IMG/VR virus record: IMGVR_UViG_3300017917_002605
Span: 110,471-168,911 of that record
DNA: 58,441 bases
Origin: a virus
Taxonomy: Duplodnaviria; Heunggongvirae; Uroviricota; Caudoviricetes
Direction: 5' to 3' (one strand)
Positions within the stretch are counted from its first letter, which is position 1. Each line of letters begins with the position of its first letter. A model generated the notes under the pieces. That model did not search any database. It had not been told where the DNA came from and saw only the letters and a program-made list of their open reading frames with translations. Shown one piece after another: positions 2,449 to 39,842 of the stretch. The translations under genes were made by a program, and so were the position numbers.

Positions 2449-5237
2449 TATGCCATCACCATTTCAGCAAACACTTCATCAACAACGCTAGCAGTTTCTT
2501 TCTTATCATCTGTTGTTGCGGTGTTGTTAGATGTACTTGAGTTGTTATTGATAACTGTTGGTTCGTTAGCAGACATTTCTAGTCTTTGTTGTTCAGCAAC
2601 TTCAGCAGACGCCAAGGACAAATCAGAACCAGAAGTTGTCGAACTTGAAGGTTCGGAAACAGTTGATGGTGTTGCCGCAAGACTTGCCGCTGACGAACTT
2701 GCCCCACCGCCTGAAGTTGCCGAAGGTGCAGCAGAAGTAGATGATTCACCACCAGAAGGAATTATTGCCGCAGACTCTGGAACAGCGCTAGGAGAAGTTG
2801 CCGAGGTGGATGATGCGCCACCACCTTCTGTGAAGATACTTTTAGCATCCGTATCTGATAGGGAAGCCACCAGTGATGGTGCCTGGTCCATGCCCATGCC
2901 GGCGGCAACTTTACCGAAAGTCTTTAATTGTTCCGCAGGAGTTTTTGCGGCACCCATTTCTGCACCGGCAGATTCCATTGCTTGTCTTGTTGGACCACCT
3001 GTACCCATACCAAAAAGTTTCGTCAGTCTGTCATTAAGATTTGCAGCTGCGCCTTTTTGTTCTGGTGTTTGTGCTACCTGTTGTTCCAATTCTTTAGAAA
3101 TGGTATTCACAGGCACAGGTTTTTCACCGGCCTTTGCCAATGTTTGAACACGCATTCTTTCGAAGTCACCAGCAGCAATCAGAGCAGTTGTGATATCGTT
3201 ATCCATTTCTGCAATCTTTTCTGGTGGTGCACCGTCAGCAATTGCTTTCTCTTTTGCTTTTTTAATTTTTCTAACAAGACTTATGGTTTCATCACGTTTC
3301 TTTTCATAGTAAGATGCTTGTTCAACCAAAGACTTGTCTTTTTCACCAACAAGGTCCATCTTTGTTGGCATCTTTTGGTCTGCTGCCGCAACAGCTTCTG
3401 TAGATTGTTTTGTTGGTGTTTGTTCTTGTTCTTTACCAATATCTGCTGGTGTTGCCGGTGTTGTTTTCTCTGGTTTAGATTCTGTCGATTCTTTTTTGGT
3501 GGCCGCATCCATTGCTTTATCAGCAGCTGCCGAAGGAGAAACTTCTTTCTTCTCTGGTTGTGCAGAAACTTCAGGTGCCGCAGATTTTGGATTAGATTTG
3601 AATGGATACCAAGGACCAATACTTCCTAATTCCCATGGTCCTTTCTTAACTTCCATGCCATCAAAGATGGTTATTCTTTTGCCACCCAACAAAGCAGGCA
3701 AATCAACTGAAATTGCTGGTATAGTAAAACCTATTGCGGGTATTGTTGGCAGTTTTATTTCAGGAATACCAACGTTGTTCACCACCCAATCTTTAATTGT
3801 GGTAACAACTTTACTGATACTATCAATCACAGGGTTGATGTACTCACCAACCGTATTGAACAGTGTTCTTATTGATTCTTTATCGAATAAACCAAAGGTT
3901 AGGAAATCAACAATACCACCAAGGCCTGCAATGATTGCTTCTTTTAGGTCTCCCGTTTCTTGCCATGCTTTCCATCCGTCAATCAGACCATTGACCAACG
4001 AGGCAACCAATGTACCAATAACGAATACTTTACCTAAAACTTTTAGTAGGTTGGATGGTTTAAAGATGAATCGTAAAGCTTTGAATAGACCATCTTTCAC
4101 CCAATTGATAATGGTACCAATGAAGTCTTTGATGTTGAAACCACCACCATCAGAAGATTTTTCTGAACCTTTAATTGGTGATGTGTTTGATTTTTCTTTA
4201 CTCTTTAATTTTGCACGTTCAGCTTCTAACGCAGCTTCACGTTCATCCGCCTTCAAGAAATACATGTCGGCACCGGTCGCAGCTTTCTTAGAATCGTCTT
4301 TGCCTTCGACCTTGCTTTTGCCTTTCTCTAATACACTGTTGGTAATTTTGATTACGTTCTGACGAATGACATTAATATCTCTGCTCATTCCAGCCCAAGT
4401 CATTGAGTTCTTGGCTAAAATGGAAATGTCATTTCTAATGTCACCTAATTCTTCACCACCGATGCCTTCAGGTGCAGGCGAAACAGAACTGGTCATATCG
4501 CCAGGTTGTTTTAGTGCATTGTATCCTTTACCGAATACTTTCTCACCAACAGCGCCCATCAGTCCAGAACCAAATGCGTTTCTTGGGTCCAGTTTTTCTT
4601 TTAGTCGTTCTTTTGTTGCAACTGCTATACCACCAAAAGTGCCGGCGCCTTCATCGGTTGCTTTTCTATACAGTTGTGCAAGTCTGGTTCCTGAACCGTA
4701 ATCTTTTCTACCAGAAGAAACGTCAGCGCCAGATTTAACACGGTCACTTTCTTTTTTCTGCTTTTGTTCCTCATTCTTTACAGTCTGAGGTTCTTCTGTT
4801 GGTTCAGGTGCAGTTGATTTTTGTTTTTCACGTTCAATCTTTTCTTTACGTGCTTCTAGTGCGGAACCACGTAGCGGTTTACCTATTTTGTCAAGGTATT
4901 CCGGTGGAACAACTTCTTCTGGCACAGGTTCCTGTTTTACAAGTTCCAATGCCTTCGATGTTACTGCTTTTTCAGCAGCATCAAATGCGGCCATTTCTTG
5001 AGGCGTTGTACCTAAGATATCCGCTTCAGATTTTTGAACTAATGCTTGTTGTTCTGCTTCCGTTACTTCTTCTTTAGGAGAAAGTAGAGCATTCAGTTTT
5101 TCAGCAATTTCTTTCTTTGCAGAACGACCGGCTTTTCCTGTTTTAGGATTAACTACCGCCCATGCGGCACCCATCCAACGATATGTGGTGCCTTCAAAGG
5201 TCACTTCAGCGTTTAGTTCTGGTTTAAAATCTGCCAT
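2448..5237 (-). CDS. Tape-measure/baseplate hub gp29-like protein (929 aa)
   Basis: Long Ala/Lys/Glu/Ser-rich ORF with a Trp/Phe amphipathic segment (FIGTIINWVKDGLFKALRFIF...DGWKAWQETG); lies downstream of gp26/gp51; paralogous to 1..2448. Confidence 0.65.
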   Translation of the reverse strand: MADFKPELNAEVTFEGTTYRWMGAAWAVVNPKTGKAGRSAKKEIAEKLNALLSPKEEVTEAEQQALVQKSEADILGTTPQEMAAFDAAEKAVTSKALELVKQEPVPEEVVPPEYLDKIGKPLRGSALEARKEKIEREKQKSTAPEPTEEPQTVKNEEQKQKKESDRVKSGADVSSGRKDYGSGTRLAQLYRKATDEGAGTFGGIAVATKERLKEKLDPRNAFGSGLMGAVGEKVFGKGYNALKQPGDMTSSVSPAPEGIGGEELGDIRNDISILAKNSMTWAGMSRDINVIRQNVIKITNSVLEKGKSKVEGKDDSKKAATGADMYFLKADEREAALEAERAKLKSKEKSNTSPIKGSEKSSDGGGFNIKDFIGTIINWVKDGLFKALRFIFKPSNLLKVLGKVFVIGTLVASLVNGLIDGWKAWQETGDLKEAIIAGLGGIVDFLTFGLFDKESIRTLFNTVGEYINPVIDSISKVVTTIKDWVVNNVGIPEIKLPTIPAIGFTIPAISVDLPALLGGKRITIFDGMEVKKGPWELGSIGPWYPFKSNPKSAAPEVSAQPEKKEVSPSAAADKAMDAATKKESTESKPEKTTPATPADIGKEQEQTPTKQSTEAVAAADQKMPTKMDLVGEKDKSLVEQASYYEKKRDETISLVRKIKKAKEKAIADGAPPEKIAEMDNDITTALIAAGDFERMRVQTLAKAGEKPVPVNTISKELEQQVAQTPEQKGAAANLNDRLTKLFGMGTGGPTRQAMESAGAEMGAAKTPAEQLKTFGKVAAGMGMDQAPSLVASLSDTDAKSIFTEGGGASSTSATSPSAVPESAAIIPSGGESSTSAAPSATSGGGASSSAASLAATPSTVSEPSSSTTSGSDLSLASAEVAEQQRLEMSANEPTVINNNSSTSNNTATTDDKKETASVVDEVFAEMVMA

Positions 5238-28757: not shown

Positions 28758-28765
28758 TATAAATA
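28758..28765 (+). promoter_or_regulatory. T4 late promoter TATAAATA (block 1 of the receptor-binding array)
   Basis: Exact consensus upstream of 28789. Confidence 0.75.
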
Positions 28766-28788: not shown

Positions 28789-29115
28789 ATGGCAAACACT
28801 TTTAAATCAAACGTTGCAGCAAACATTGTGACCTCCGGAAATACGGTTTATACCTGTCCTGCGGCAACTCAAACCACATTGATTGGTTTGACACTATCAA
28901 ACAAATCTGCTGGAACATTGACAGCAAACGTATTTCTAACTCGTTCAGGTACGGATTATTCTTTAATATCTAATGCGCCTATCCTCACTGGGTCTACCTT
29001 AGTTCCAATCGGTGGTGACCAAAAAGTTGTTTTACAGGCATCAGATGGTTTAAAAGTCACCACAAGTGCCAATGGCTCACTAGATGTTATTGCTTCATTA
29101 CTTGAAATTGCTTAA
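28789..29115 (+). CDS. Small beta-rich virion protein (MANTFK... type)
   Basis: 108 aa, VYTCP...TTLIGLTLSN, VPIGGDQKVVL; follows an AIALG-terminated gene. Confidence 0.65.
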   Translation: MANTFKSNVAANIVTSGNTVYTCPAATQTTLIGLTLSNKSAGTLTANVFLTRSGTDYSLISNAPILTGSTLVPIGGDQKVVLQASDGLKVTTSANGSLDVIASLLEIA

Positions 29116-29124
29116 GGATAAAAT

Positions 29125-29340
29125 ATGGCCTTAACTAGAGTACAAGGTGGTATTTGGGGTGCAGGTGGAAGTGCTAATACAGCATTTCAGACCGGCGTTG
29201 CCATGATGGAAAACGCAAATACCGTTTATAACAGTTATACATTGACAACAAATAATAACGCAATGTCTGTTGGTCCTATTACCATTTTAGAAGGTAAAGC
29301 AATTACAGTACCTACAGGCCAAAGTTGGGTGGTTCTATAA
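29125..29340 (+). CDS. Fibre adaptor-like protein A1 (71 aa)
   Basis: C-terminal N-A...T-L-T-T..N-A.S.G-P-I-T-I......T-V.....W.V-L domain shared with 36002..36424. Confidence 0.65.
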   Translation: MALTRVQGGIWGAGGSANTAFQTGVAMMENANTVYNSYTLTTNNNAMSVGPITILEGKAITVPTGQSWVVL

Positions 29341-29341
29341 G

Positions 29342-29893
29342 ATGGCACTAATTAATACAACAACTACGGGTGTAAGAGGCACCACACTTTTTGCTGACGG
29401 CACTGGTGATTTGAGCATTCAACAGAACGGCGTCACAATTAATAAGGTTACAAAAAATCCAGCTTTTTCGTCATATTTGGGTTCAAATCAAACACCAACC
29501 GAAGGCGTACTAACAAAGATACAATTTAATGTAAAATCTTTTGACACTGAAGGATGTTACGATACAACAAATTATCGTTTTGTTCCAAACGTTGCTGGTT
29601 ATTACTATTTTAGTTTGATGTTAAGTGTTGTATCACTAACTTCAGGTAGAGTTATGGCTTTCCAACCTAGAATTTATAAAAATGGTTCGGCGGTTTCCAT
29701 ATACGAACATAACATGACCATGTCTTCAGACCAAATTGGATTGACAAACTTTTGGTTTGGATACTGTAATGGTTTGTCGGATTATATCGAGGCATACGGA
29801 TACATCAATGATGTTAATTCTGCAAGCACAGGAACGTTTCAAAGTGGTGAAACTAGATGTTTGTTTTCAGGATTTTTAGTAAAGGCGGTATAA
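29342..29893 (+). CDS. Receptor-binding tip, family A (C1q/TNF-like jelly roll)
   Basis: PAFSSYL..NQ......TKIQFN..SFD...YDTTNYRFVPNVAGYYYF; C-terminal FSGFLV. Confidence 0.7.
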   Translation: MALINTTTTGVRGTTLFADGTGDLSIQQNGVTINKVTKNPAFSSYLGSNQTPTEGVLTKIQFNVKSFDTEGCYDTTNYRFVPNVAGYYYFSLMLSVVSLTSGRVMAFQPRIYKNGSAVSIYEHNMTMSSDQIGLTNFWFGYCNGLSDYIEAYGYINDVNSASTGTFQSGETRCLFSGFLVKAV

Positions 29894-29894
29894 T

Positions 29895-30071
29895 ATGAAT
29901 TTGTTGGAAAAAATTATTTCTTTATATCCGGAATTAGAAACATTTAATTTTGCTTCCGGAATAATTACGTTACAAAACGATAGTGACGGAAAAGGCGACT
30001 ACATAGCCAAATGGGAACACCCAACACTTGCACAACCAACAAAGGAACAGTTAGATGCCATTAGTTCTTAA
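29895..30071 (+). CDS. Cognate chaperone type a (XkdW-like, 58 aa; not in ORF track)
   Basis: Hand translation MNLLEKIISLYPELETFNFASGIITLQNDSDGKGDYIAKWEHPTLAQPTKEQLDAISS*. Confidence 0.8.
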   Translation: MNLLEKIISLYPELETFNFASGIITLQNDSDGKGDYIAKWEHPTLAQPTKEQLDAISS

Positions 30072-30573
30072 CGGTACAGGTACAGTAACAGGTTTGGCAG
30101 CTGGTGGATTGCCAGATGCAACCATTACTCAGTCCGAATTGGTTTCTGGTATTGCGGGAAATGGTCCTGTTTTTGCTAGTGGTTCGACAGGTTTGACAAG
30201 TATTTCGGCCACAACTTGGACAGCATATACAAATTTTTCTGAAAGCCAATTCGATACAATTAATGGATTTAACAGAACAACTGGAAGATATCAACCAAAC
30301 GTTGCTGGTTATTATTGGGTACAAGGTATAGTAGATTGTGGATATTCTGGTGTAACGTCTACTGCTATTTACGCTTCTATTTTTAAAAATGGAAATAACT
30401 ATAGAGGTGGCACTGCTGGCCAGTATGCGTCAGGAGCATATCCTGCCATCCTTTGCACAAGTGTTGTTTATTTAAATGGCACAACAGATTATATTCAAGT
30501 TTATTGTTACACTTTGCAGTCGATAAGCAACACATCTGGTTCACTTATGGCTTGTATGATTAGGAGTGCATAA
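30055..30573 (+). CDS. Receptor-binding tip, family A (C1q-like)
   Basis: GPVF...., FDT..GFN..TGRYQPNVAGYYWV, VVYLNGTTDYIQVY. Confidence 0.7.
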   Translation: MPLVLNGTGTVTGLAAGGLPDATITQSELVSGIAGNGPVFASGSTGLTSISATTWTAYTNFSESQFDTINGFNRTTGRYQPNVAGYYWVQGIVDCGYSGVTSTAIYASIFKNGNNYRGGTAGQYASGAYPAILCTSVVYLNGTTDYIQVYCYTLQSISNTSGSLMACMIRSA

Positions 30574-30746
30574 TGCATTTGGTAGAAAAAATTAGAAAAG
30601 TATATCCAGAACTAAAAGATACTGATTTTTTTTCAATCATTATTGTTCAAGATGACAGTGATGGCAATGGTCCTTATATCAAACAGTGGAATCACCCAAC
30701 ACTACCAAGACCAACACAAGAACAACTAGACGCAGTTACAGAATAA
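30573..30746 (+). CDS. Cognate chaperone type a (57 aa; not in ORF track)
   Basis: MHLVEKIRKVYPELKDTDFFSIIIVQDDSDGNGPYIKQWNHPTLPRPTQEQLDAVTE*; TAATG coupling. Confidence 0.8.
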   Translation: MHLVEKIRKVYPELKDTDFFSIIIVQDDSDGNGPYIKQWNHPTLPRPTQEQLDAVTE

Positions 30747-30756
30747 GGCATAACAA

Positions 30757-31872
30757 ATGAGTGTAATTTATAGTGGAACAGGCATAACATTTGATGATGG
30801 TTCTGTGCAAACTAATAGTTGGACAGGATTCAAAAATCGTATCATCAATGGTGATATGAGAATTGACCAGAGGAACAACGGTTCATCAGTTTCTATCACT
30901 CTTGGAACAAGTAATGGTTTTGTTGTTGATAGATGGCGTTTTCAAAATGCTGGTGGTAGTTCTAGTGTTTTTTCTGCACAGAGAGTTACTGATGCGCCAG
31001 CTGGATTCACTAACTCTTTAAAAGTTACCACAACAACTGCCGCATCAACTCAGGCGGCCGATTCGAAACATCTGTGGTTACCTATCGAAGGATTTGATAC
31101 TGCCGATTTAGATTTTGGTACCGCATCAGCTAAAACTGTAACTTTGTCTTTTTGGGTCAAAAGTTCTAAAACAGGTAATTTTGGTGCAGCTATATCTAAT
31201 GACGGCGCCGCCAGAGCATATAGTTTTCTTTACAACATATCTCAAGCAGATACTTGGGAATATAAAACTGTAACTATTCCTGGTGATACTGTTGCGCCGG
31301 CTTGGTCTAAAAATAATTTTACAGGTATGCGTGTCAACTTCAACATTGGTTCTGGTTCAAATTATACTACAGTACCAAATCAATGGGGTGCTGGTCCCGA
31401 CCGTGGTGCAAATGGACAAATTACTTTACTAGATACATTAAATGCAACATGGCAGATTACTGGTGTACAATTGGAACGTGGAAGTCAAGCATCAAGTTTT
31501 GAATATCGTCCTTATGGAACTGAGTTGGCGTTATGCCAAAGATATTACTGGCGAATTTCTGGATTTTCTGGTCCTTCCGGTTATCCTTCAGTTGGTTCTG
31601 GAACACTCAGAGCTTCAAATATTGCTCGTTTATATGTTAAATTTCCAGTTTCTATGAGAAGCGCTCCAACACTCAATTTTTCTGGTTCTATTAGTGGTAC
31701 AAGCGGAGTTGTAGAAAATACTGTATCATCAATATACGGACAGTATGCTTCAACAGAAACTTCTTTGTTTGATTTGTTGTTTAGTGCCACCACATTTACA
31801 ACAGGATATGGCGTAACTGTATTTGTTAATAATGCATCTACAAATTATGTAGAGGCTTCAGCGGAGTTATAA
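30757..31872 (+). CDS. Receptor-binding tip, family B (carbohydrate-binding-module-like)
   Basis: [14 protein letters not shown] ... [10 protein letters not shown] ... WQITGVQLE ... ELALCQRYY ... C-terminal SAEL. Confidence 0.72.
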
Positions 31873-31873
31873 A

Positions 31874-32050
31874 ATGGAATATAAACTTCAACCTCCTTTT
31901 AGAATTGGTGAAGAAAGTGGTGGCGTAATACGTAAAAGTGATGGCGCTTGTATACCCTTTGACCCAGCCAACACCGATTATCAAGAATACCTAAAGTGGC
32001 TTGCTGAAGGTAACGAACCACTTCCTGCGGATGAACCACCGAGCGAATAA
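31874..32050 (+). CDS. Cognate chaperone type b (58 aa; not in ORF track)
   Basis: [58 protein letters not shown]. Confidence 0.8.
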
Positions 32051-32053
32051 ATA
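32046..32053 (+). promoter_or_regulatory. Late promoter (AATAAATA), block 2
   Basis: Upstream of 32059. Confidence 0.6.
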
Positions 32054-32058
32054 AAAAC

Positions 32059-33219
32059 ATGGCATACTTAGGAAATAACTCATTACCTTTTGACCCAACC
32101 AGAACCGCAGCACAACCCCGTGATGCGGAAAGATTCTCTGGTAACGGTTCAACGGTCAATTTCACATTATCACGTACAGTAAATAATCCTACTGATGTTG
32201 AAGTATTTGTTGAAAACGTTCAGCAAGAACCAATTGTTGCTTACAATATTGTTGGTACTACACTATCATTTACCGAAGCACCACCATCCGGTTCACAAAA
32301 CATCTATGTAATTTACCGTGCATTTAATACTGGTGCTCAAGTTTATGTGCCAGACGGTTCTATTACATACGCTAAGTTGGCTAACAACCTAAAGTTGTTC
32401 ACGAGCGACAACTTAACACCAAACGGCAACAATTCAGTATTCACACTTTCTGATACTCCACCGGATGCAAACACTGTTATCGTATCTGTTGATGGTATTG
32501 TTCAGAGAGCACCAGTTCATTACACTGTTTCTGGACAAACAATTACATTCACATCTCCACCACCAGCTGGTTCAAATGTGCATGTTCGTCACCTTGGTAT
32601 TAGAACAACGGAAACATTGACTGCTATTGCAGCCAATACTTTTATTCCTCAGCCAACAATCAGTTCACCAACAATAACTGGAACAACAACAATTTCAGGT
32701 TTGTTGCCTGCGGCCGCAAACACCACTCAAATTGGTTCTTCAACACAACCATTTGCTGTTGGTCATTTCAATGGTATTAAGTTTCCAGGAACACAATCGG
32801 CAAGTGCTGACGCAAATACACTAGATGATTATGAGGAAGGTACTTGGACTCCAAGTATTCAAGGAAACGCTGCTGCCGGCACGGTCACTTATGGTGCATT
32901 AAGATATGGTTATTACACAAAAGTAGGTAGAAAAGTAACTGTAGGTGGAAGGATAGATTATTCAAATTTCACTGGAGCCTCTGGTTATTTACTCATAAAT
33001 GGACTCCCATTTACATCATTAGGTTCATTAGAATTTATTGGCACATTTATGACAGAGAATTTGGTTTATCCTACCAGCAGTAATTATTGTGTTACTTACA
33101 TATCTGCATCCGCATTTGTTATTCCTTGGGGAATAAGAGATAATGGAGCTTGGCAAACATTTCCTGTTACAGACACGGCCGCAAATATAATTTTTACAAT
33201 CACTTATTTTACAAGTTAA
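32059..33219 (+). CDS. Fibre/tip protein, family C, with two N-terminal G(N/D)G..F...PP.G modules
   Basis: MAYLGN start; two FSGNGSTVNFTL/LTPNGNNSVFTL modules; ADANTLDDYEEGTWTP followed by a variable tip. Confidence 0.72.
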   Translation: MAYLGNNSLPFDPTRTAAQPRDAERFSGNGSTVNFTLSRTVNNPTDVEVFVENVQQEPIVAYNIVGTTLSFTEAPPSGSQNIYVIYRAFNTGAQVYVPDGSITYAKLANNLKLFTSDNLTPNGNNSVFTLSDTPPDANTVIVSVDGIVQRAPVHYTVSGQTITFTSPPPAGSNVHVRHLGIRTTETLTAIAANTFIPQPTISSPTITGTTTISGLLPAAANTTQIGSSTQPFAVGHFNGIKFPGTQSASADANTLDDYEEGTWTPSIQGNAAAGTVTYGALRYGYYTKVGRKVTVGGRIDYSNFTGASGYLLINGLPFTSLGSLEFIGTFMTENLVYPTSSNYCVTYISASAFVIPWGIRDNGAWQTFPVTDTAANIIFTITYFTS

Positions 33220-33223
33220 TAAT

Positions 33224-33481
33224 ATGAGTTTAACAAAAGAAACACTAATTGATAAAATTGAAGTTGTGGAAAACGGCACTGTACAAGTGCGTCAAGTTAC
33301 ACGCATCATGGAAGACGGTAATCAACTATCACAATCTTTTCACCGTTGGACCATTTCTCCAGGTCAAGATTATTCCGACCAACCAGATAATGTCAAAGCA
33401 ATTTGCCAAGTAACGCATACTCCAGAAGTTGTTGCTGCATATCAAGCAAAACTGGAAGAAATTAATCTAAGAGCTGAATAA
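33224..33481 (+). CDS. Cognate chaperone type c (85 aa)
   Basis: IDKIEVVE.G.VQVRQVTRIMED....S..HRWTI.PGQDYSDQ; near-identical to 37873..38127. Confidence 0.75.
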   Translation: MSLTKETLIDKIEVVENGTVQVRQVTRIMEDGNQLSQSFHRWTISPGQDYSDQPDNVKAICQVTHTPEVVAAYQAKLEEINLRAE

Positions 33482-34548
33482 TGGGAATTCAAACAGCACA
33501 ACAAGCACTAGAAAATGAATTAGGTGCATCACCATTTGGTTTTAAAAACATCATAATGAATGGTGATATGTCCGTTAATCAACGAGGCAACACTTCAATA
33601 ACTGTTGGTTCGGGTCAGGCAAACGGCCAAGCTGCATTTCTTACAGACAGATGGCGTTGCTGGTCAGCAGCCAACGGTAATACCTTAGCTGCAACATTTG
33701 AACAAGTTACTGATGCTCCCGAAGGTTTCAAGTACAGTGTAAGAGCAACACCTACTGTCACAGGAACACCCAACAGTCAATTTTATTCTTTTATTTGGCA
33801 AGGCGTAGAGTATAATAATATTCGAAGACTGAAGTGGGGTACTGGACAAGCTTTACCTTTGACTTTATCTTTTTGGGTTAAATCTTCATCGACAGGCACA
33901 TTTTCTGCAATTGTAACCAACAACGGTAATAATGGCATGTCATTTAAAATTTGGCGTGCCACATATACAGTTAATCAATCAAATACTTGGGAATATAAAA
34001 CAATAAGTATTGTTGGTGATACGGATTCCACTTGGTTAAATGCCACTTCGGATAATGGTGTAGGATTATTTGTTGGATTAACTCTGGGTGGTACAACCGG
34101 TATTACTACACCTGTTAATACATGGGATAATACTGCTGCTTATAATCGTGTTGGTGACTTCAATTTCTTCTCATCAACAAGCAATACTTGGCAAGTTACC
34201 GGCATTCAATTAGAAATAGGCCGAGAAGCTACGCCTTTTGATTTTAGACCATATTCAACTGAGTTGTCTCTTTGTGAGAGATATTATGAGGTTTGTGTTG
34301 GTGGTTGGCGTGGTTATGGATATGGTTTTATTGGTGCTGCTGGTGTAAATTTTAGGCAGAAAAAAAGAGCAACGCCAACTGTAACCTTTGTATCTTTTAA
34401 TGCTTCGGAAAATACAGACGGTAGTAATGCGTATTCAGCAAACATTACTGTAAATGGATTTGAGGCTAGATGTGCCTTAACCTCTGGCGGCGGCGCACCA
34501 AATTTTGGTTCTTTTTCTGCAACATATAAATCAGAGATTGAGTTATGA
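33481..34548 (+). CDS. Receptor-binding tip, family B
   Basis: [45 protein letters not shown]-terminal EIEL. Confidence 0.72.
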
Positions 34549-34700
34549 TGTATAAATTAACAGAAAACACAAAAGAAATTATTCGTTTGGTCGACAAAGC
34601 GACTATTCCTTTCGATTCAGAAAACACCGATTACCAAGAATACCTAAAGTGGCTTGCTGAAGGTAACACTCCTGAACCTGCGGACGAACCTACTAAATAA
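34545..34700 (+). CDS. Cognate chaperone type b (51 aa; not in ORF track)
   Basis: [51 protein letters not shown]; ATGA overlap. Confidence 0.8.
34692..34699 (+). promoter_or_regulatory. Late promoter (ACTAAATA), block 3
   Basis: Upstream of 34707. Confidence 0.55.
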
Positions 34701-34706
34701 AACATC

Positions 34707-35771
34707 ATGCCATTAAGTAGAATTAAATCAAATTCAATTAGTAATCCAGTATCTTTAACACAACCTGTTATTGATGGTGCAGGTTACTCTCAGTACCAGT
34801 ATAGAAATAAAATCATCAACGGTGATTTTTCTGTTTGGCAACGTGGTACGTCCGGAAGTTTAGTTGGTGGTCCAGGATATGTTTCTGCTGACCGCTGGAA
34901 AATTTATGTAAACTCTAGCACAACCATGACTTTATCCAGGCAAACATTTACTCCTGGACAAACTGAAGTTCCTGGTAATCCAACTTACTATGCCAGATTT
35001 GACTGGTTGGGTACCGGTGCTTCTCAATTTTTTAGTTTTGAACAAGCAATTGAAGGTGTTCATCACGGTGCTGGCGATTATTTGACCATATCATTTTACG
35101 CTAGAACCGAACAAGGTGATGACATGACTTTAGCTGTCACACAAAAATTTGGTACTGGTGGTTCTTCTGATGTAACTGTGACAAATACTCCTCTTTCTAT
35201 TGATACAACTTGGAAAAAATTTGTTGTAACTGTTGCTGTGCCTTCTATTTCCGGCAAAACAATTGGCACAGATAATCATTTACTGGTTACTTGGTTTAGA
35301 AGCGGCACACTAAATTCTTATTTGGATATTGCAGATGTGCAGGTAGAAGTTGGTCAAGTTGCTACTCCTTTTGAGCGTAGACCTCCAGCACTTGAATTGG
35401 CTTTGTGTCAAAGATATTTTTATAGTGTTACATTACCAAGAGATACTAACCTTTTTTATCCAGCAGTTGTATATGTTGGTGCCACTGGGACATTGATTCA
35501 GGCTCTGCCGGTGACATTATTAATGCGAACAACTCCAACCGCTTCTACCATTATAGGAACAGCAAAACCAACATTCATTCGATATGACTACGGCACAAGT
35601 TCTCAACAAACCATAACGTCCATTTTTGCTACTGTTCGTTCAACTTCTGGAACTTATTGGATGGAAGTCCAATATGTAGCCGTTGGTTCTTGGGGTTCAG
35701 CAGGACACTCAGGTGTTGTTTCATGGGACACAGGAACTAGCAGTGTAATTACTCTTTCTGCGGAATTATAA
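34707..35771 (+). CDS. Receptor-binding tip, family B (divergent)
   Basis: [43 protein letters not shown]-terminal SAEL. Confidence 0.72.
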   Translation: MPLSRIKSNSISNPVSLTQPVIDGAGYSQYQYRNKIINGDFSVWQRGTSGSLVGGPGYVSADRWKIYVNSSTTMTLSRQTFTPGQTEVPGNPTYYARFDWLGTGASQFFSFEQAIEGVHHGAGDYLTISFYARTEQGDDMTLAVTQKFGTGGSSDVTVTNTPLSIDTTWKKFVVTVAVPSISGKTIGTDNHLLVTWFRSGTLNSYLDIADVQVEVGQVATPFERRPPALELALCQRYFYSVTLPRDTNLFYPAVVYVGATGTLIQALPVTLLMRTTPTASTIIGTAKPTFIRYDYGTSSQQTITSIFATVRSTSGTYWMEVQYVAVGSWGSAGHSGVVSWDTGTSSVITLSAEL

Positions 35772-35772
35772 T

Positions 35773-35991
35773 ATGGAACAAAAAATTAACGTTTATAAAC
35801 TAATCGACAGTATGAAAGATACCATTTATAGAACAAATGATAACGCTTGCATACCTATTGAACCTAGAAATATAGATTACGTCTTTTTTAAAATTGAAAT
35901 GGAAAAAGGTTTGGCTGAATTACAAGATGTTACAGGCACAGTTATGACTAGAGAACAATGCCTTGATTTTATCTCCAAATTACCAAACTAA
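35773..35991 (+). CDS. Cognate chaperone type b (divergent, 72 aa)
   Basis: IYRTNDNACIPIEPRNIDY aligns with [18 protein letters not shown]. Confidence 0.7.
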   Translation: MEQKINVYKLIDSMKDTIYRTNDNACIPIEPRNIDYVFFKIEMEKGLAELQDVTGTVMTREQCLDFISKLPN

Positions 35992-35994
35992 ATA
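35987..35994 (+). promoter_or_regulatory. Late promoter (ACTAAATA), block 4
   Basis: Upstream of 36002. Confidence 0.55.
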
Positions 35995-36001
35995 AAAGAC
36001 T

Positions 36002-36424
36002 ATGGCATATCTTGGTAACCAACAAATAAACGGAACCTTTAATTCCCAGTTCTTTTCTGGTGATGGTTCCACAACAGAATTCACGTTACAGTATTCAACT
36101 GGTAACGAAGCTTCCGTATTGGTCTTCATCACTGGTGTTAAACAGCAGACCACTACCTATGCATTGATTAACGGTAAGATTGTTTTTACTGAAGCGCCAC
36201 CAGCTGGATACAATAACATTGAATTGGTTTATCTTGGTGACCGTGTTCAAGTTAATCCTTACCTAAGTGCAGATTCACAAGGTATTATCAGACTTAACGC
36301 AAGCGTATTGACAGAAAACGTGACAATTACAACCGGTTATAATGCATCTTCTGCCGGTCCATTGACCATTGCAAATAACGTTGTTGTAACAATCGCAAAC
36401 AACTCTACTTGGACGGTGTTCTAA
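36002..36424 (+). CDS. Fibre adaptor-like protein A2 (140 aa)
   Basis: MAYLGN + one FSGDGSTTEFTL...FTEAPPAG module (as 32059) + C-terminal domain shared with 29125. Confidence 0.7.
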   Translation: MAYLGNQQINGTFNSQFFSGDGSTTEFTLQYSTGNEASVLVFITGVKQQTTTYALINGKIVFTEAPPAGYNNIELVYLGDRVQVNPYLSADSQGIIRLNASVLTENVTITTGYNASSAGPLTIANNVVVTIANNSTWTVF

Positions 36425-37080
36425 TGGCAGGCACAATTATTGCAGATTACATCCGTGCGGATGCTAACAAATTAAGTTTGAATGTAGGCAATACTACTTT
36501 TGCCACAATTAATTCTTCAGGTTTTTTCAGTAACACCGGTGTTCAAATTATTGACCAAAATGGTCAAGTTGGTGCATTATCTGTAGGTACCAACCAATTA
36601 CAAACTGGTGCTGTTACACAAACAAAAATTGGTTCTAATGTTGCTGGAACAGGCCCAATTTTTATAACATCAATGGGTGCGGCACAAACTTTAACAAGTG
36701 CTGTTTGGACTAAAGTTGCCTTTGATACAGAAAGTGTTGATTCACATAACTGTTATAACACTTCTCTTTATAGATTTACGCCGACTGTTGCCGGTTATTA
36801 TCAATTCACATTACAATTCACAGCTGGTACAGGTAATATTCAAGCAGTTCAAAGCGGACTTTATAAAAACGGAAGTGCAATTGCATGGAACGTAAATTAT
36901 TTAATGTCTGTAAGTTATGGAGATGATTTAACATCTTCTTTGACAAAATTGGTTTATATGAATGGTACTACAGACTATATTGAACCTTATGGCTATGTGG
37001 TTGACGCTTCTGCCGGTAGTGATGTTATATTTTCAAGCATATATTCTCATTTTGAAGGTTTCTTGGCAAGGGCTGCATAA
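36424..37080 (+). CDS. Receptor-binding tip, family A (C1q-like); likely start ATG 36424
   Basis: TAATG coupling; WTKVAFDTESVDSHNCYNTSLYRFTPTVAGYYQF; VYMNGTTDYIE; FEGFLAR. Confidence 0.72.
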   Translation: MAGTIIADYIRADANKLSLNVGNTTFATINSSGFFSNTGVQIIDQNGQVGALSVGTNQLQTGAVTQTKIGSNVAGTGPIFITSMGAAQTLTSAVWTKVAFDTESVDSHNCYNTSLYRFTPTVAGYYQFTLQFTAGTGNIQAVQSGLYKNGSAIAWNVNYLMSVSYGDDLTSSLTKLVYMNGTTDYIEPYGYVVDASAGSDVIFSSIYSHFEGFLARAA

Positions 37081-37256
37081 TGAATTTAACGCAAAAAATT
37101 TTAAAAATATATCCTGAATTGTCACAAAAAGATTTTTCTGGAAAAGTTATTGAATTGCGAAATGATTTGGACGGAAAAGGTGATTACATCGCCAAATGGG
37201 AACATCCTACATATCCTAGACCAACGCAAGAACAATTAGATAGTGTGGAAGAATAA
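37080..37256 (+). CDS. Cognate chaperone type a (58 aa; not in ORF track)
   Basis: MNLTQKILKIYPELSQKDFSGKVIELRNDLDGKGDYIAKWEHPTYPRPTQEQLDSVEE*. Confidence 0.8.
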   Translation: MNLTQKILKIYPELSQKDFSGKVIELRNDLDGKGDYIAKWEHPTYPRPTQEQLDSVEE

Positions 37257-37259
37257 CAC

Positions 37260-37856
37260 ATGGCAGGCATTTTAAAAGTCGATAGAGTACAATCAGATTC
37301 CAATTTGGCATTTCAAATTGGTTCTTCTAATGTTGCCTATTTTAATACCACCGGTTTGAACATAACTGGCGGTGAAATTATTGCTGGTGGTTCCACTCTG
37401 AGAACATCTGGTGGCATGTTATATGCAAACAGTGGTATTGCTTTTCCTGGAACACATGTTGCAAGTGCTGACCCAAATACTTTAGATGATTATGAAGAAG
37501 GTACTTGGACTCCAACAACAATAAGTTTAAACAATATTAGTAGTATAACAATAAGTTATGCCTCTTATATTAAAGTAGGAAGATTAGTTCATTGTTCGAT
37601 GTATGGTACCGCTGCAGTAACTTCCACTTCCACCAATACCTATTTTGGTTTTTCTTTACCGTTTGTTGCAGTAAACAACACAGTCGCACCATCTGGGACA
37701 TTTAATTTTGCTGGCGCAACAAATAATTTAGGAACAGTGATTGATTGGTCAGGTTCCACCAATGATTATTTTGGTATTTGGGTGCCTTCGGCGAATATGT
37801 TGAATAACGGCACATTAAGTTGGCAATTAGGATTTACCTATCCAACAGTTTCTTAA
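37260..37856 (+). CDS. Receptor-binding tip, family C
   Basis: GIAFPGT..SADPNTLDDYEEGTWTP; Y.KVGR.V; paralogue of the C-terminal half of 32059. Confidence 0.72.
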   Translation: MAGILKVDRVQSDSNLAFQIGSSNVAYFNTTGLNITGGEIIAGGSTLRTSGGMLYANSGIAFPGTHVASADPNTLDDYEEGTWTPTTISLNNISSITISYASYIKVGRLVHCSMYGTAAVTSTSTNTYFGFSLPFVAVNNTVAPSGTFNFAGATNNLGTVIDWSGSTNDYFGIWVPSANMLNNGTLSWQLGFTYPTVS

Positions 37857-37872
37857 TTTATGGTAGAAAAAA

Positions 37873-38127
37873 ATGAGTTTATCTAAAGAAATCAGTATCG
37901 ATAAAATCGAAGTTGTTGAACCTGGTATTGTTCAGGTTCGTCAAGTAACACGTATTATGGAAGATGATAATCTACTATCTTCTTCTTATCATCGTTGGAC
38001 TATTGCTCCCGGCCAAGATTATTCTGACCAATCAGATAACGTCAAAGCAATTTGCCAAGTAGTTCATACACCACAAGTTATTGCTGCATATCAAGCAAAA
38101 TTGGAAGAAAGCACATTAGGAAAATAA
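37873..38127 (+). CDS. Cognate chaperone type c (84 aa)
   Basis: Paralogue of 33224..33481. Confidence 0.75.
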   Translation: MSLSKEISIDKIEVVEPGIVQVRQVTRIMEDDNLLSSSYHRWTIAPGQDYSDQSDNVKAICQVVHTPQVIAAYQAKLEESTLGK

Positions 38128-38128
38128 C

Positions 38129-39274
38129 ATGGCAGGTACAATTGTAGTTGACCGAATTGAGTCTGATGGAAGTTATGCTTCCACAATTAATGTTGCCTCA
38201 AAGGTAAATTTTACTGGTGGTGTTCAAGTTGGCGGCCAAGATGCCACATTTGGTGGTATGCGTAATCGTATCATCAATGGTGATATGAGAATTGACCAAA
38301 GGAACGTTGGAGTAACCACTACTCCAGCTGATTTTGCTTTCATTACAGATAGATGGCAAGTTCGTCAAAGTACAGCTTCAAAAATGTCGGCTGGTCAAAG
38401 CACAGTAGTTCCCGTAGGTTTTTCTAATTCTTTAGCAATAACTTCTCTTTCATCATACACCGTTTTATCTAGTGATATTTACACAGTTAGACAACAGATT
38501 GAAGGTTTTAATACTTCAGATTTTGGTTGGGGTACCGCAAATGCAAAACCTGTCACCTTGTCTTTTTGGGTACGTTCTTCATTAACAGGAACTTTTGGTG
38601 GTTCTGCATTGAATAATGGTAACAATAGAAGTTATGTTTTTTCTTATACAATAAATCAAGCAGATACCTGGGAATATAAAACAATAATTATTCCTGGAGA
38701 CACTACAGGAACCTGGCAAACAAACAACCAACGTGGAGTTCAAATATCTTTTGGATTAGGTGTAGGTTCTACACAATCGGGTACAGCAGGCGCCTGGTCT
38801 TCTAATAATTATGCTTCCGTAACTGGTGCTGTTAGTTTGGTTGGAACAAACGCAGCTACTTGGTATTTAACTGGTGTCCAATTAGAATTAGGTTCTGTAG
38901 CAACATCTTTTGAAATGAGACCATATGGAGCCGAATTAGCTTTGTGTCAAAGATACTATTCAAAATCTTATAATATTAACGTTAAACCAGGAACAGTATC
39001 TTCTTATGCTGGTGTGCTGGCTGTGGTTCCTTATTCTACAGGTTTGCAATATACAACTTGGATTATTCAATTTAAACAAACCATGAGAACTGCTCCAACT
39101 GTTTTAGTGTATAGTCCTGAAACAGGAGCATCTGGTAACTGTTATAATGGCGCAGGAGATGTTGCAGCAGGAGCATCAAGTATTGGTGAATCTGGTTGTT
39201 TTGCTAGAAATACGGCCAGTGCAAGCACTGGATATTTTGCTTATATTCAATATACAGCTGAAGCGGAGTTATGA
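38129..39274 (+). CDS. Receptor-binding tip, family B
   Basis: [44 protein letters not shown]-terminal EAEL. Confidence 0.72.
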
Positions 39275-39423
39275 TGTATAAATTAGATTCAGAACCAAAT
39301 GTTGTTATACGTTTAAAAGATAAAGCCTGTATTCCTTTTGACCCAGCAAACACCGACTATCAAGAATATTTGAAGTGGTTGGAACAAGGAAACACTCCTG
39401 AACCGGCAGACCCAATAGAATAA
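39271..39423 (+). CDS. Cognate chaperone type b (50 aa; not in ORF track)
   Basis: [50 protein letters not shown]. Confidence 0.8.
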
Positions 39424-39435
39424 TTGAACTCTGCC

Positions 39436-39461
39436 AAACCCCACCAAGTGTGGGGTTTTTT
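39436..39461 (+). terminator. Rho-independent terminator closing the receptor-binding array
   Basis: AAACCCCAC-caagt-GTGGGGTTT followed by further T residues. Confidence 0.85.
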
Positions 39462-39481
39462 ATTATTGCATACCCAAAAAG

Positions 39482-39489
39482 ACTAAATA
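39482..39489 (+). promoter_or_regulatory. Late promoter (ACTAAATA)
   Basis: After the terminator; followed by SD AAGGAG and a TTG start at 39510. Confidence 0.65.
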
Positions 39490-39509: not shown

Positions 39510-39842
39510 TTGGCAGAATTTGTAGAGCTAACCTTAGAACAAGGAGCTACATTTACAACAACAATTAACGTGAATGAGAATGACGGTACACCAAAGGACC
39601 TGTCATCCTATACTGCACGTTCTCAAATGCGTAAATCTTATTACGCAACAACCGCCAAAGACTTCACATTAACAAAAACCAATGCAGTCGGTGGTGAACT
39701 AACCATGTCCATGACTGCTGCAAATACCGCAAATCTAACTCCAGGTAGATATGTTTATGATGTTGAAATTGAAGATACCGGTGGTACGGTAACCCGCATT
39801 TTTGAGGGTATCGTTGTGGTTATGCCAGGCGTAACACGATAA
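39510..39842 (+). CDS. Ig-like virion protein (BppU N-terminal-like)
   Basis: LTLEQGATF..., DLSSYTARSQMRK, LTPGRYVYDVEI, RIFEG.V.V.PGVT. Confidence 0.6.
   Translation: MAEFVELTLEQGATFTTTINVNENDGTPKDLSSYTARSQMRKSYYATTAKDFTLTKTNAVGGELTMSMTAANTANLTPGRYVYDVEIEDTGGTVTRIFEGIVVVMPGVTR

Follow-up and report, generated by a model that had tools for sequence, protein, structure and literature searches.

A shared C-terminal stub domain and tip N-terminal modules as a candidate joint for multi-tip tail fibers in a T4-like phage

The sequence analyzed here ("the window") is a stretch of 58,441 nucleotides (nt) that corresponds to bases 110,471–168,911 of IMGVR_UViG_3300017917_002605, a complete 168,911-bp IMG/VR record with terminal repeats. 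The phage is a marine T4-like myovirus: terminase, sheath, and baseplate genes (hub and wedge) can be recognized, and its large terminase shares ~57% identity with the enzymes of Pelagibacter phage HTVC008M and of Synechococcus phage S-PM2. Directly downstream of the baseplate genes, the plus strand carries a run of fiber genes ("the array"), for which a megablast search of a cultured-phage collection gave no match. On balance, we favor the reading that this array encodes modular multi-tip fibers, built on a conserved joint between the C-terminal domain (C-dom) of a proximal "stub" protein and the N-terminal modules (N-modules or "plugs") of the tip proteins encoded behind it, with three different tips displayed together. 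The evidence consists of a C-dom family with a strict C-terminal position, a conserved gene order, a recurring count of three tips per stub, plug classes that almost never repeat within an array, and a recombination boundary that lies just past the plug.

The two stubs of the window and the tips that follow them are listed below, with the basis of each assignment in parentheses.

29125–29340 (+): stub 1, 71 amino acids (aa); a disordered Gly-rich N-terminal part followed by the C-dom (approximately residues 27–71, nt 29203–29337), without an anchor domain (profile, AlphaFold2 [AF2]).
29342–30071 (+): tip 1; C1q-like head, alpha-type N-module MALINTTTTGV; with an XkdW-like small protein at 29895–30071 (Pfam).
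30055–30746 (+): tip 2; A family, N terminus MPLVLNGTGTVTGLAAGGLPDA, like P-SSP7 gene 37; with an XkdW-like small protein at 30573–30746 (BLAST).
30757–32050 (+): tip 3; B family, gamma-type N-module (N-module cluster 11); with small protein cB at 31874–32050 (phrog_4492 tail fiber, E 1.5e-57).
36002–36424 (+): stub 2, 140 aa; β-sandwich anchor (approximately residues 11–79) and a divergent C-dom (residues 99–140) (BLAST, profiles, AF2, Foldseek).
36424–37256 (+): MAG tip 1; C1q-like head; with an XkdW-like small protein at 37080–37256 (Pfam C1q, 29.3 bits).
37260–38127 (+): MAG tip 2; C-type head; with small protein cC at 37873–38127 (BLAST, motif).
38129–39423 (+): MAG tip 3; B-type head; with small protein cB at 39271–39423 (BLAST, motif).

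Genes are referred to by the position of their first nucleotide. An earlier note on this DNA, made from the sequence alone, had described a C-terminal domain shared by 29125 and 36002, with exactly three cassettes of a tip and a chaperone behind each, and these observations held. Residues 30–71 of 29125 align with residues 99–140 of 36002 at 36% identity (E 6e-5), and all-against-all BLAST of the array proteins gave the cassettes 29342 (A) + 29895, 30055 (A) + 30573, and 30757 (B) + 31874 after 29125, and 36424 (A) + 37080, 37260 (C) + 37873, and 38129 (B) + 39271 after 36002. Also as noted earlier, the heads behind 36002 belong to three different families (A, C, and B). The N-terminal motif of these tips, MAG.[IL]..D.[IV]..D, has exactly three matches in a six-frame translation of the 168,911-bp genome, namely the starts of 36424, 37260, and 38129. 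The tips after 29125 start with MALINTT, MPLVLNG, and MSVIYSG. The gap from stub to next tip is +1 nt at 29125 and −1 nt at 36002; the first tip after 36002 begins at ATG 36424, in a TAATG stop overlap, and not at TTG 36409 as previously listed. Elsewhere in the 169-kb genome, we found no further C-dom or MAG plug.

The C-dom comprises ~45 aa and has the consensus EN..TV...YT.TT.KNAMSVGPITI.SG.TVTVPSG.RWV[VI][LV] at the free carboxy end. The C-dom of 29125 is of this mainstream type, whereas that of 36002 is divergent (...YNASSAGPLTI...NNSTWTVF). Both window stubs fit the motif N..Y(T/S)....N..S.GP.T......T(V/I).....W... and a 61-sequence profile in which both are themselves rows (profile A1), and both terminate in ...W(V/T)V(L/F)-stop. 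Among PHROG profiles, 29125 matches positions 994–1043 of the 1044 of phrog_34255 (E 5.8e-9), and 36002 matches positions 3185–3318 of the 3319 of phrog_5342 (E 6.4e-12); these profiles show the C-dom at the very end of giant fiber proteins. With 29125 as the query, 250 relatives were retrieved from IMG/VR. The C-dom profile, built from the 61 sequences, was searched against 1.84 billion cluster representatives; at a threshold of E ≤ 1e-3 it matched 9,416 protein clusters, of which 5,781 also passed E ≤ 1e-10. The domain is terminal in 148 of the 150 top proteins, which range from 46 to 1,534 aa and nearly all finish with W-x-x-x-COOH. It likewise reaches the last residue, in open reading frames (ORFs) of 50–690 aa, in all of the ~85 junctions that were sampled from 85 fetched viral loci and the two of the window. 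The carriers have at least five unrelated N-terminal architectures and unrelated central parts, so that the C-dom is the common denominator of the stubs; many also hold at least one copy of the 36002-type β-sandwich anchor. Two proteins, P0002 (329 aa) and P0003 (304 aa), contain three tandem C-dom-like units, all of them internal in P0002 and the last one C-terminal in P0003, and the C-dom can therefore also serve as a repeated shaft unit.

Pfam and NCBIfam hold no family for the C-dom. A PDB sequence search with it returned only a weak match to phage Mu gp47 (9ki1_H), a relation that we rejected because an E value of 0.04 over 20 residues was judged to reflect chance. Using a 142-sequence alignment, AF2 folds residues ~27–71 of 29125 as a stand-alone domain with a predicted local distance difference test (pLDDT) score of 91–96, preceded by a disordered Gly-rich linker. 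For 36002, modeled with a shallow alignment, the C-dom had a pLDDT below 45, which indicates that a deep alignment is needed. Foldseek and VIA-align searches with the confident C-dom model found no solved counterpart in the PDB (no chain at Z of 2 or more by VIA-align), a result that would not by itself prove a new fold, the domain being small.

The ORF that follows the C-dom is separated from it by a gap of −16 to +36 nt, is usually coupled to it, and almost always starts with a Gly/Ser/Thr-rich stretch of ~35–45 residues (~70 non-redundant viral loci). A hidden Markov model of the N-module, derived from alignment A2, was dropped because it was too heterogeneous and missed 30055 and 38129. 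N-modules were detected by anchored pairwise scoring against bona fide plugs, with the 99th percentile of upstream control ORFs as the threshold. For 38 non-redundant loci, 4.5 kb or more of sequence was available downstream; of these, 23 had three plug-bearing tips per stub and 12 had two, and single loci had none, one, and five. The locus with five tips contains the two arrays of a close relative, and several of the two-tip scores are undercounts.

Clustering of 99 tip N termini defined the plug classes alpha (M-A-x-I-I-N-A-D-T-S..DTSG.L.LQ), beta (M-S-x-I-L-x-G-S-T-S-G-S-V-T-L..PAVAGT..LTLP), and gamma (M-S-x-I-L-D-G-S-N-G-V-T-F), and a smaller class, delta (M-A-Y-G-T-I-N-T-D), which includes the MAG starts. 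The alpha cluster comprises 24 tips in 24 arrays, as does the beta cluster, and 17 arrays hold exactly alpha + beta + gamma. A plug class is repeated in one of the 34 mainstream arrays, whereas 5,000 label shuffles gave 19 on average and 10 at the least. Small clusters were merged into gamma partly by eye; the result for alpha and beta is independent of this merging. Since plug classes almost never repeat, the tips appear to occupy three different places and to be displayed together. All MAG-type plugs follow a divergent C-dom of the 36002 type, which points to two distinct stub–plug pairs in the window, although this association represents one evolutionary event and is thus statistically weak. 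Related delta-type starts follow mainstream C-doms, as in P-SSP7 gene 41 (MSRIIVDAIRNS) and also MAYGTINTDKLVG, so that this type of motif is only partly private.

Five related phage contigs (L002, L003, L005, L006, and L007) keep this layout, with a stub 2 that is 71–77% identical. Three tips stand behind the 36002 homolog in all four complete loci and behind the 29125 homolog in two of two. In these relatives, the first 30–70 residues of each tip are kept by position, whereas heads and small partners are swapped for unrelated ones. Over 67 junctions, similarity of the stub C-dom correlates with similarity of the next N-module (Mantel test, Spearman r 0.38, reached by none of 500 permutations), and the same comparison between the N-module and residues 60–160 of its own protein gives r 0.02. 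Because the N-module tracks the stub C-dom and not its own head, the recombination boundary lies just past the plug and not at the gene border. The earlier proposal that the N-terminal peptide addresses a tip to its adaptor gains from these data, in that positional conservation and co-variation tie the N-modules to the upstream stub at the sequence level; it is weakened in that the motif type is not wholly private.

In two of the relatives, L002 (2621–3415) and L006 (3422–4315), the stub-2 homolog is immediately preceded by an inserted ORF of 264–297 aa that carries a NUMOD3 motif (E 1.2e-9) and probably encodes a homing endonuclease. The stub-2 homologs of both contigs have ATT in place of ATG at the conserved start.

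Heads of the A type (29342, 30055, and 36424) are C1q-like, those of the B type (30757, 33481, 34707, and 38129) match phrog_4492 tail fiber, and the C type is found in 37260 and in the C-terminal half of 32059. The C1q family (PF00386) scores above its cutoff of 23.7 bits for 29342 (25.2 bits) and 36424 (29.3 bits); 30055 was placed in the C1q-like family only via BLAST to these two. As judged by BLAST, each head family pairs strictly with one family of downstream small ORFs, in all nine tip-plus-small-ORF cassettes and in 32059 with 33224. Among the small proteins, 29895 matches XkdW (PF09636) with 29.1 bits (cutoff 24.6), and 30573 and 37080 are 57–61% identical to it. We take these small ORFs to be putative chaperones of their cognate heads. 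An unrelated uncultured phage (L040, 8147–10966) has a single stub of 138 aa that is followed by these same head families (B, A, and C) and their three partner families, and head-plus-partner cassettes therefore circulate widely as units.

Among cultured phages, the C-dom ends P-SSP7 gp17, S-SBP1 gp40, and fibers of Methylophilales phages, as well as ORFs that carry a "hypothetical" annotation in four T4-like cyanophages (S-CAM7, S-T4, S-N03, and P-TIM68). In P-TIM68 (L089, 5743–8209), a 131-aa C-dom stub is followed by a 559-aa gamma-type tip and then by a cC-type small protein, all annotated as hypothetical. In P-SSP7, genes 37, 38, 39, and 41 and a ~96-aa partner follow directly after gp17, and gene 37 starts with MPITLNGSGTVSGISAGGLPDG, close to 30055 of the window. 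The layout of an adaptor plus three tips is not special to the phage studied here; it is a widespread rule that was already visible in P-SSP7, where genes 37–39 form a cassette of three paralogs directly after tail fiber gene 36 (gp17) (Schwartz and Lindell 2017, PMC5520035). Host resistance is overcome by mutations in genes 37 and 38 (PMC5520035), which argues that tips of this type act in host recognition. The authors of that study point out that direct evidence for a structural role of the products of genes 37–39 is lacking, and neither a docking domain nor a plug rule appears in their paper. Cryo-EM of P-SCSP1u and a 2026 study of P-SSP7 resolved only the N-terminal ~117 residues of the fiber, and not its distal part (PMC10575957; bioRxiv 10.64898/2026.08.19.745834). 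The heads of P-SSP7 are three paralogs of one family, whereas those of the window come from different families.

In the mechanism that we propose, the proximal stub would end in an autonomous C-dom at its free carboxy end, and the distal receptor-binding tips, being separate products, would plug onto it through their first 30–45 residues, the N-module. The C-terminal heads, which belong to the C1q-like A family or to family B or C, would fold together with a cognate small protein from the ORF right behind. The window would hold two orthogonal joints, 29125 with its own tips and 36002 with the MAG tips. Each stub would most likely carry three different tips at once, giving a three-pronged fiber that would widen or secure host recognition and whose heads would be exchanged by recombination just past the N-module. 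We infer the physical docking of the N-module on the C-dom, and the simultaneous display of three tips, from the patterns described above. A complex prediction with three C-doms and three N-modules gave a score of 0.01, which counts neither for nor against binding.

Several observations weigh against this proposal. Co-variation of C-dom and N-module could partly reflect co-inheritance of linked, adjacent genes. A free C terminus is not absolutely required, since P0002 and P0003 hold internal tandem C-doms. The first block of the window has an alpha and two gamma-like plugs and not the usual alpha + beta + gamma, its stub 29125 has no recognizable anchor, and two tips of the array, 33481 and 34707, come without a stub. 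Moreover, a homotrimeric stub would offer three identical C-doms, which by themselves do not account for the sorting of three plug classes.

In one alternative, the bet-hedging with alternative tips that had been suggested earlier, the three tips compete for a single stub socket, so that each fiber or particle carries one tip and the population is mixed. Identity of the three C-doms of a homotrimeric stub would fit such a socket, as would the first 13 residues common to the three MAG tips and the two-tip scores of 12 of the 38 loci, which indicate that the number of tips is not rigid. Interchangeable plugs should, however, repeat and vary in number, yet three tips were counted in 23 of 38 loci and a repeated class occurs in 1 of 34 arrays where 19 would be expected; in addition, each position keeps its own N-module across relatives. 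The non-repetition of plug classes thus disfavors bet-hedging, and we regard the single socket as rather unlikely. A further possibility, which we consider quite unlikely, is that one alpha, one beta, and one gamma chain co-fold into a heterotrimeric stalk on the stub that splays into three heads, in a design like that of C1q with its A, B, and C chains. Such a stalk would explain why there are exactly three tips, one per class, why the plugs are similar in length and pattern, and why P-SSP7 has three paralogs. We know of no obligate heterotrimeric receptor-binding fiber tip in a tailed phage, and a text search for heterotrimeric tail fibers found no description. It seems distinctly improbable that the C-dom is a foldon-like folding or capping element of short independent fibers, with tips that attach to the baseplate or tail and a synteny that reflects clustering of fiber genes, even if C-terminal folding nuclei are common in phage fibers, the C-dom is nearly always terminal, and tips 33481 and 34707 lack a stub directly before them. 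The 71-aa 29125, which has little beyond its C-dom, would then be a shaftless fiber, AF2 folds the C-dom as a monomer and not as an obligate trimer core, the recombination boundary lies past the N-module and not between genes, and structures of T7-like podoviruses such as P-SSP7 give a fiber site only for the gp17 N terminus, at the adaptor–nozzle docks (PMC10575957; bioRxiv 10.64898/2026.08.19.745834), although P-SSP7 genes 37 and 38 do have an effect on host recognition (PMC5520035).

Compared with known systems, the stub and its tips are best read, by analogy, as belonging to the type in which an anchor or adaptor binds receptor-binding proteins (RBPs) through a docking peptide, with a terminal docking domain of its own and a load of three non-equivalent tips. 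Docking-peptide adaptors are established for coliphages and Klebsiella phages, namely K1-5/SP6 (the gp37 adaptor with two tailspikes), G7C (gp66/gp63.1), and KP32/K11/KP34 (the branching domain) (PMC6872550; PMC13352976). As would be the case here, a virion-anchored primary protein bears the docking element in the K1-5/SP6, G7C, and KP32 systems, the secondary RBPs, each encoded by a gene of its own, combine a short conserved N-terminal peptide with an exchangeable C-terminal part, and one virion may display several specificities. Unlike the docking elements of K1-5, G7C, and KP32, the C-dom is not detectably T4gp10-like (no Pfam match at E ≤ 0.1 and no fold match by Foldseek or VIA-align) and stands at the extreme C terminus of the stub. 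The usual load here is three tips with three plug classes, and the heads are small, lectin-like or C1q-like, and accompanied by partner proteins, in contrast to depolymerase tailspikes. The hosts also differ, being aquatic bacteria, and both podoviruses and myoviruses carry the system.

In the long tail fiber of T4, with its joints gp34–gp35–gp36–gp37, and in the gp37–gp38 tip of T2 and S16, separate products are joined end to end, a distal piece confers specificity, and chaperones are needed. The proposed fibers would share the end-to-end build, the distal determinant of specificity, and the need for chaperones. However, we found no sequence relation to the T4 fiber, the T4 joints are one-to-one and not one-to-three, and gp38-type adhesins have a different fold. 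Display of many RBPs per virion through N-terminal hub domains is a further parallel, found in the TSP4/TSP2 XD hubs of CBA120 and in the hyperbranched fibers of phiKp24 and phiK64-1 (PMC9700779; PMC6872550); their hubs, though, are N-terminal multi-domain modules of large tailspikes, whereas the joint proposed here is a C-terminal domain of 45 aa. A text search of the open-access literature found no description of the C-dom or of the three-plug rule, although a paper beyond open access is possible.

The stub-plus-three-tips arrangement recurs in aquatic phages, over thousands of protein clusters, and is probably a common joint for multi-tip tail fibers. How marine cyanophages, pelagiphages, and their relatives recognize their hosts is poorly understood, and genes 37–39 of the model cyanophage P-SSP7 have had no assigned place in the virion; the joint, if true, would put their products at the end of gp17 and so give them a concrete structural role. 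The three-plug rule would predict receptor-binding tip ORFs and recombination sites in thousands of uncultured phage genomes, and the end of the N-module would offer a defined boundary for laboratory head swaps in host-range studies of environmental phages. Being large and absent from Pfam and NCBIfam, the C-dom family merits a family entry and a structure.

The remaining features of the array are a small protein gene before stub 1, a middle group of fiber genes between the two blocks, putative promoter motifs, and a terminator.

28758–28765 (+): canonical T4-type late promoter motif TATAAATA, 23 nt before ATG 28789 (ATAAATA kept at the same place in L003, L005, and L007).
28789–29115 (+): conserved small protein, 108 aa, before stub 1 (matches phrog_1276 and phrog_26609).
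32046–32053 (+): AATAAATA motif that overlaps the stop of 31874 and lies 5 nt before ATG 32059 (kept in L003 and L007).
32059–33481 (+): fiber with two tandem anchor domains (residues 1–86 and 114–182) fused to a C-type head, without a C-dom; with cC at 33224–33481 (BLAST; PF03906, 24.9 bits).
33481–35991 (+): two more tips of the B family, 33481 and 34707; small proteins 34545 and 35773 go with them (BLAST).
34692–34699 (+): ACTAAATA motif, 7 nt before ATG 34707 (GATAAATA at the same place, clear of the stop codon, in L002, L006, and L007).
35987–35994 (+): ACTAAATA motif, 7 nt before ATG 36002 (kept in L003, L005, and L007).
39436–39468 (+): intrinsic terminator hairpin with T-tail, closing the array, followed by CTAAATA at 39483 (hairpin and CTAAATA kept in L002, L003, and L006).

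The middle group of three heads (32059, 33481, and 34707) opens with 32059. By BLAST, its anchors are two tandem copies of the 36002 N-domain, which had been overlooked earlier, and given these domains at its start we regard 32059 as an anchor-bearing fiber with a head fused on. That it might be a stub–tip fusion hiding an internal C-dom was rejected, as the motif is absent from the window sequence; one relative gave a partial profile match. The anchor family PF03906 matches 36002 with E 0.0049 and 32059 with the 24.9 bits listed above, just below the cutoff of 25.2. AF2 models the anchor of 36002 as a β-sandwich with a pLDDT of ~70, and weak Foldseek matches were obtained to the N terminus of T7 gp17 (7boz, E ~0.08) and to the N-terminal domain of CBA120 TSP4. 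The N termini of 33481 (MGIQTA...) and 34707 (MPLSRIK...) are conserved in relatives with swapped heads.

Four late promoters had been thought to divide the array. The one at 28758 is canonical and normally spaced; those at 32046, 34692, and 35987 are NTAAATA motifs, located 5–7 nt before an ATG and overlapping the upstream stop codon, and a split of the array at these positions would rest on the motifs. It is quite possible that the array forms one late transcription unit, from promoter 28758 to terminator 39436, with the internal motifs as by-products of TAA stops in A-rich spacers: the promoter at 28758 is the only canonical and normally spaced one (23 nt), the internal motifs lie over stop codons and close to the ATG, and 39436–39468 is the only clear intergenic terminator in the array. 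Against a single unit, the motifs are kept in place in relatives, where one is clear of the stop codon (L002, L006, and L007), and TAAATA ranks high genome-wide among the hexamers of two zones upstream of ATGs. At 4–8 nt, it is the sole non-Shine–Dalgarno hexamer in the top ten (9 of 83 occurrences), and at 15–29 nt, it is the top hexamer (10 of 83). An [AC]TAAATA that ends 4–8 nt before the ATG is present in nine genes, 6979 (minus strand), 13298, 20253, 32059, 34707, 36002, 43024, 46329, and 57445. Motifs this close to an ATG, if they fire like T4 late promoters, would yield leaderless or nearly leaderless mRNAs, and the sequence pattern of the nine genes suggests that they form a class of such late promoters.

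Two neighboring genes complete the picture. Homologs of the 28789–29115 protein (phrog_1276) were found in 13 loci with a stub, from phages that are otherwise unrelated; they lie at distances of up to 7.5 kb and are not always adjacent to the stub. This protein may be another conserved part of the fiber system. The first gene past the terminator, 39510–39842, has a weak, sub-threshold match to an LtfC-like β-sandwich domain (PF23926, E 0.0023), and its position after the array is kept in relatives.

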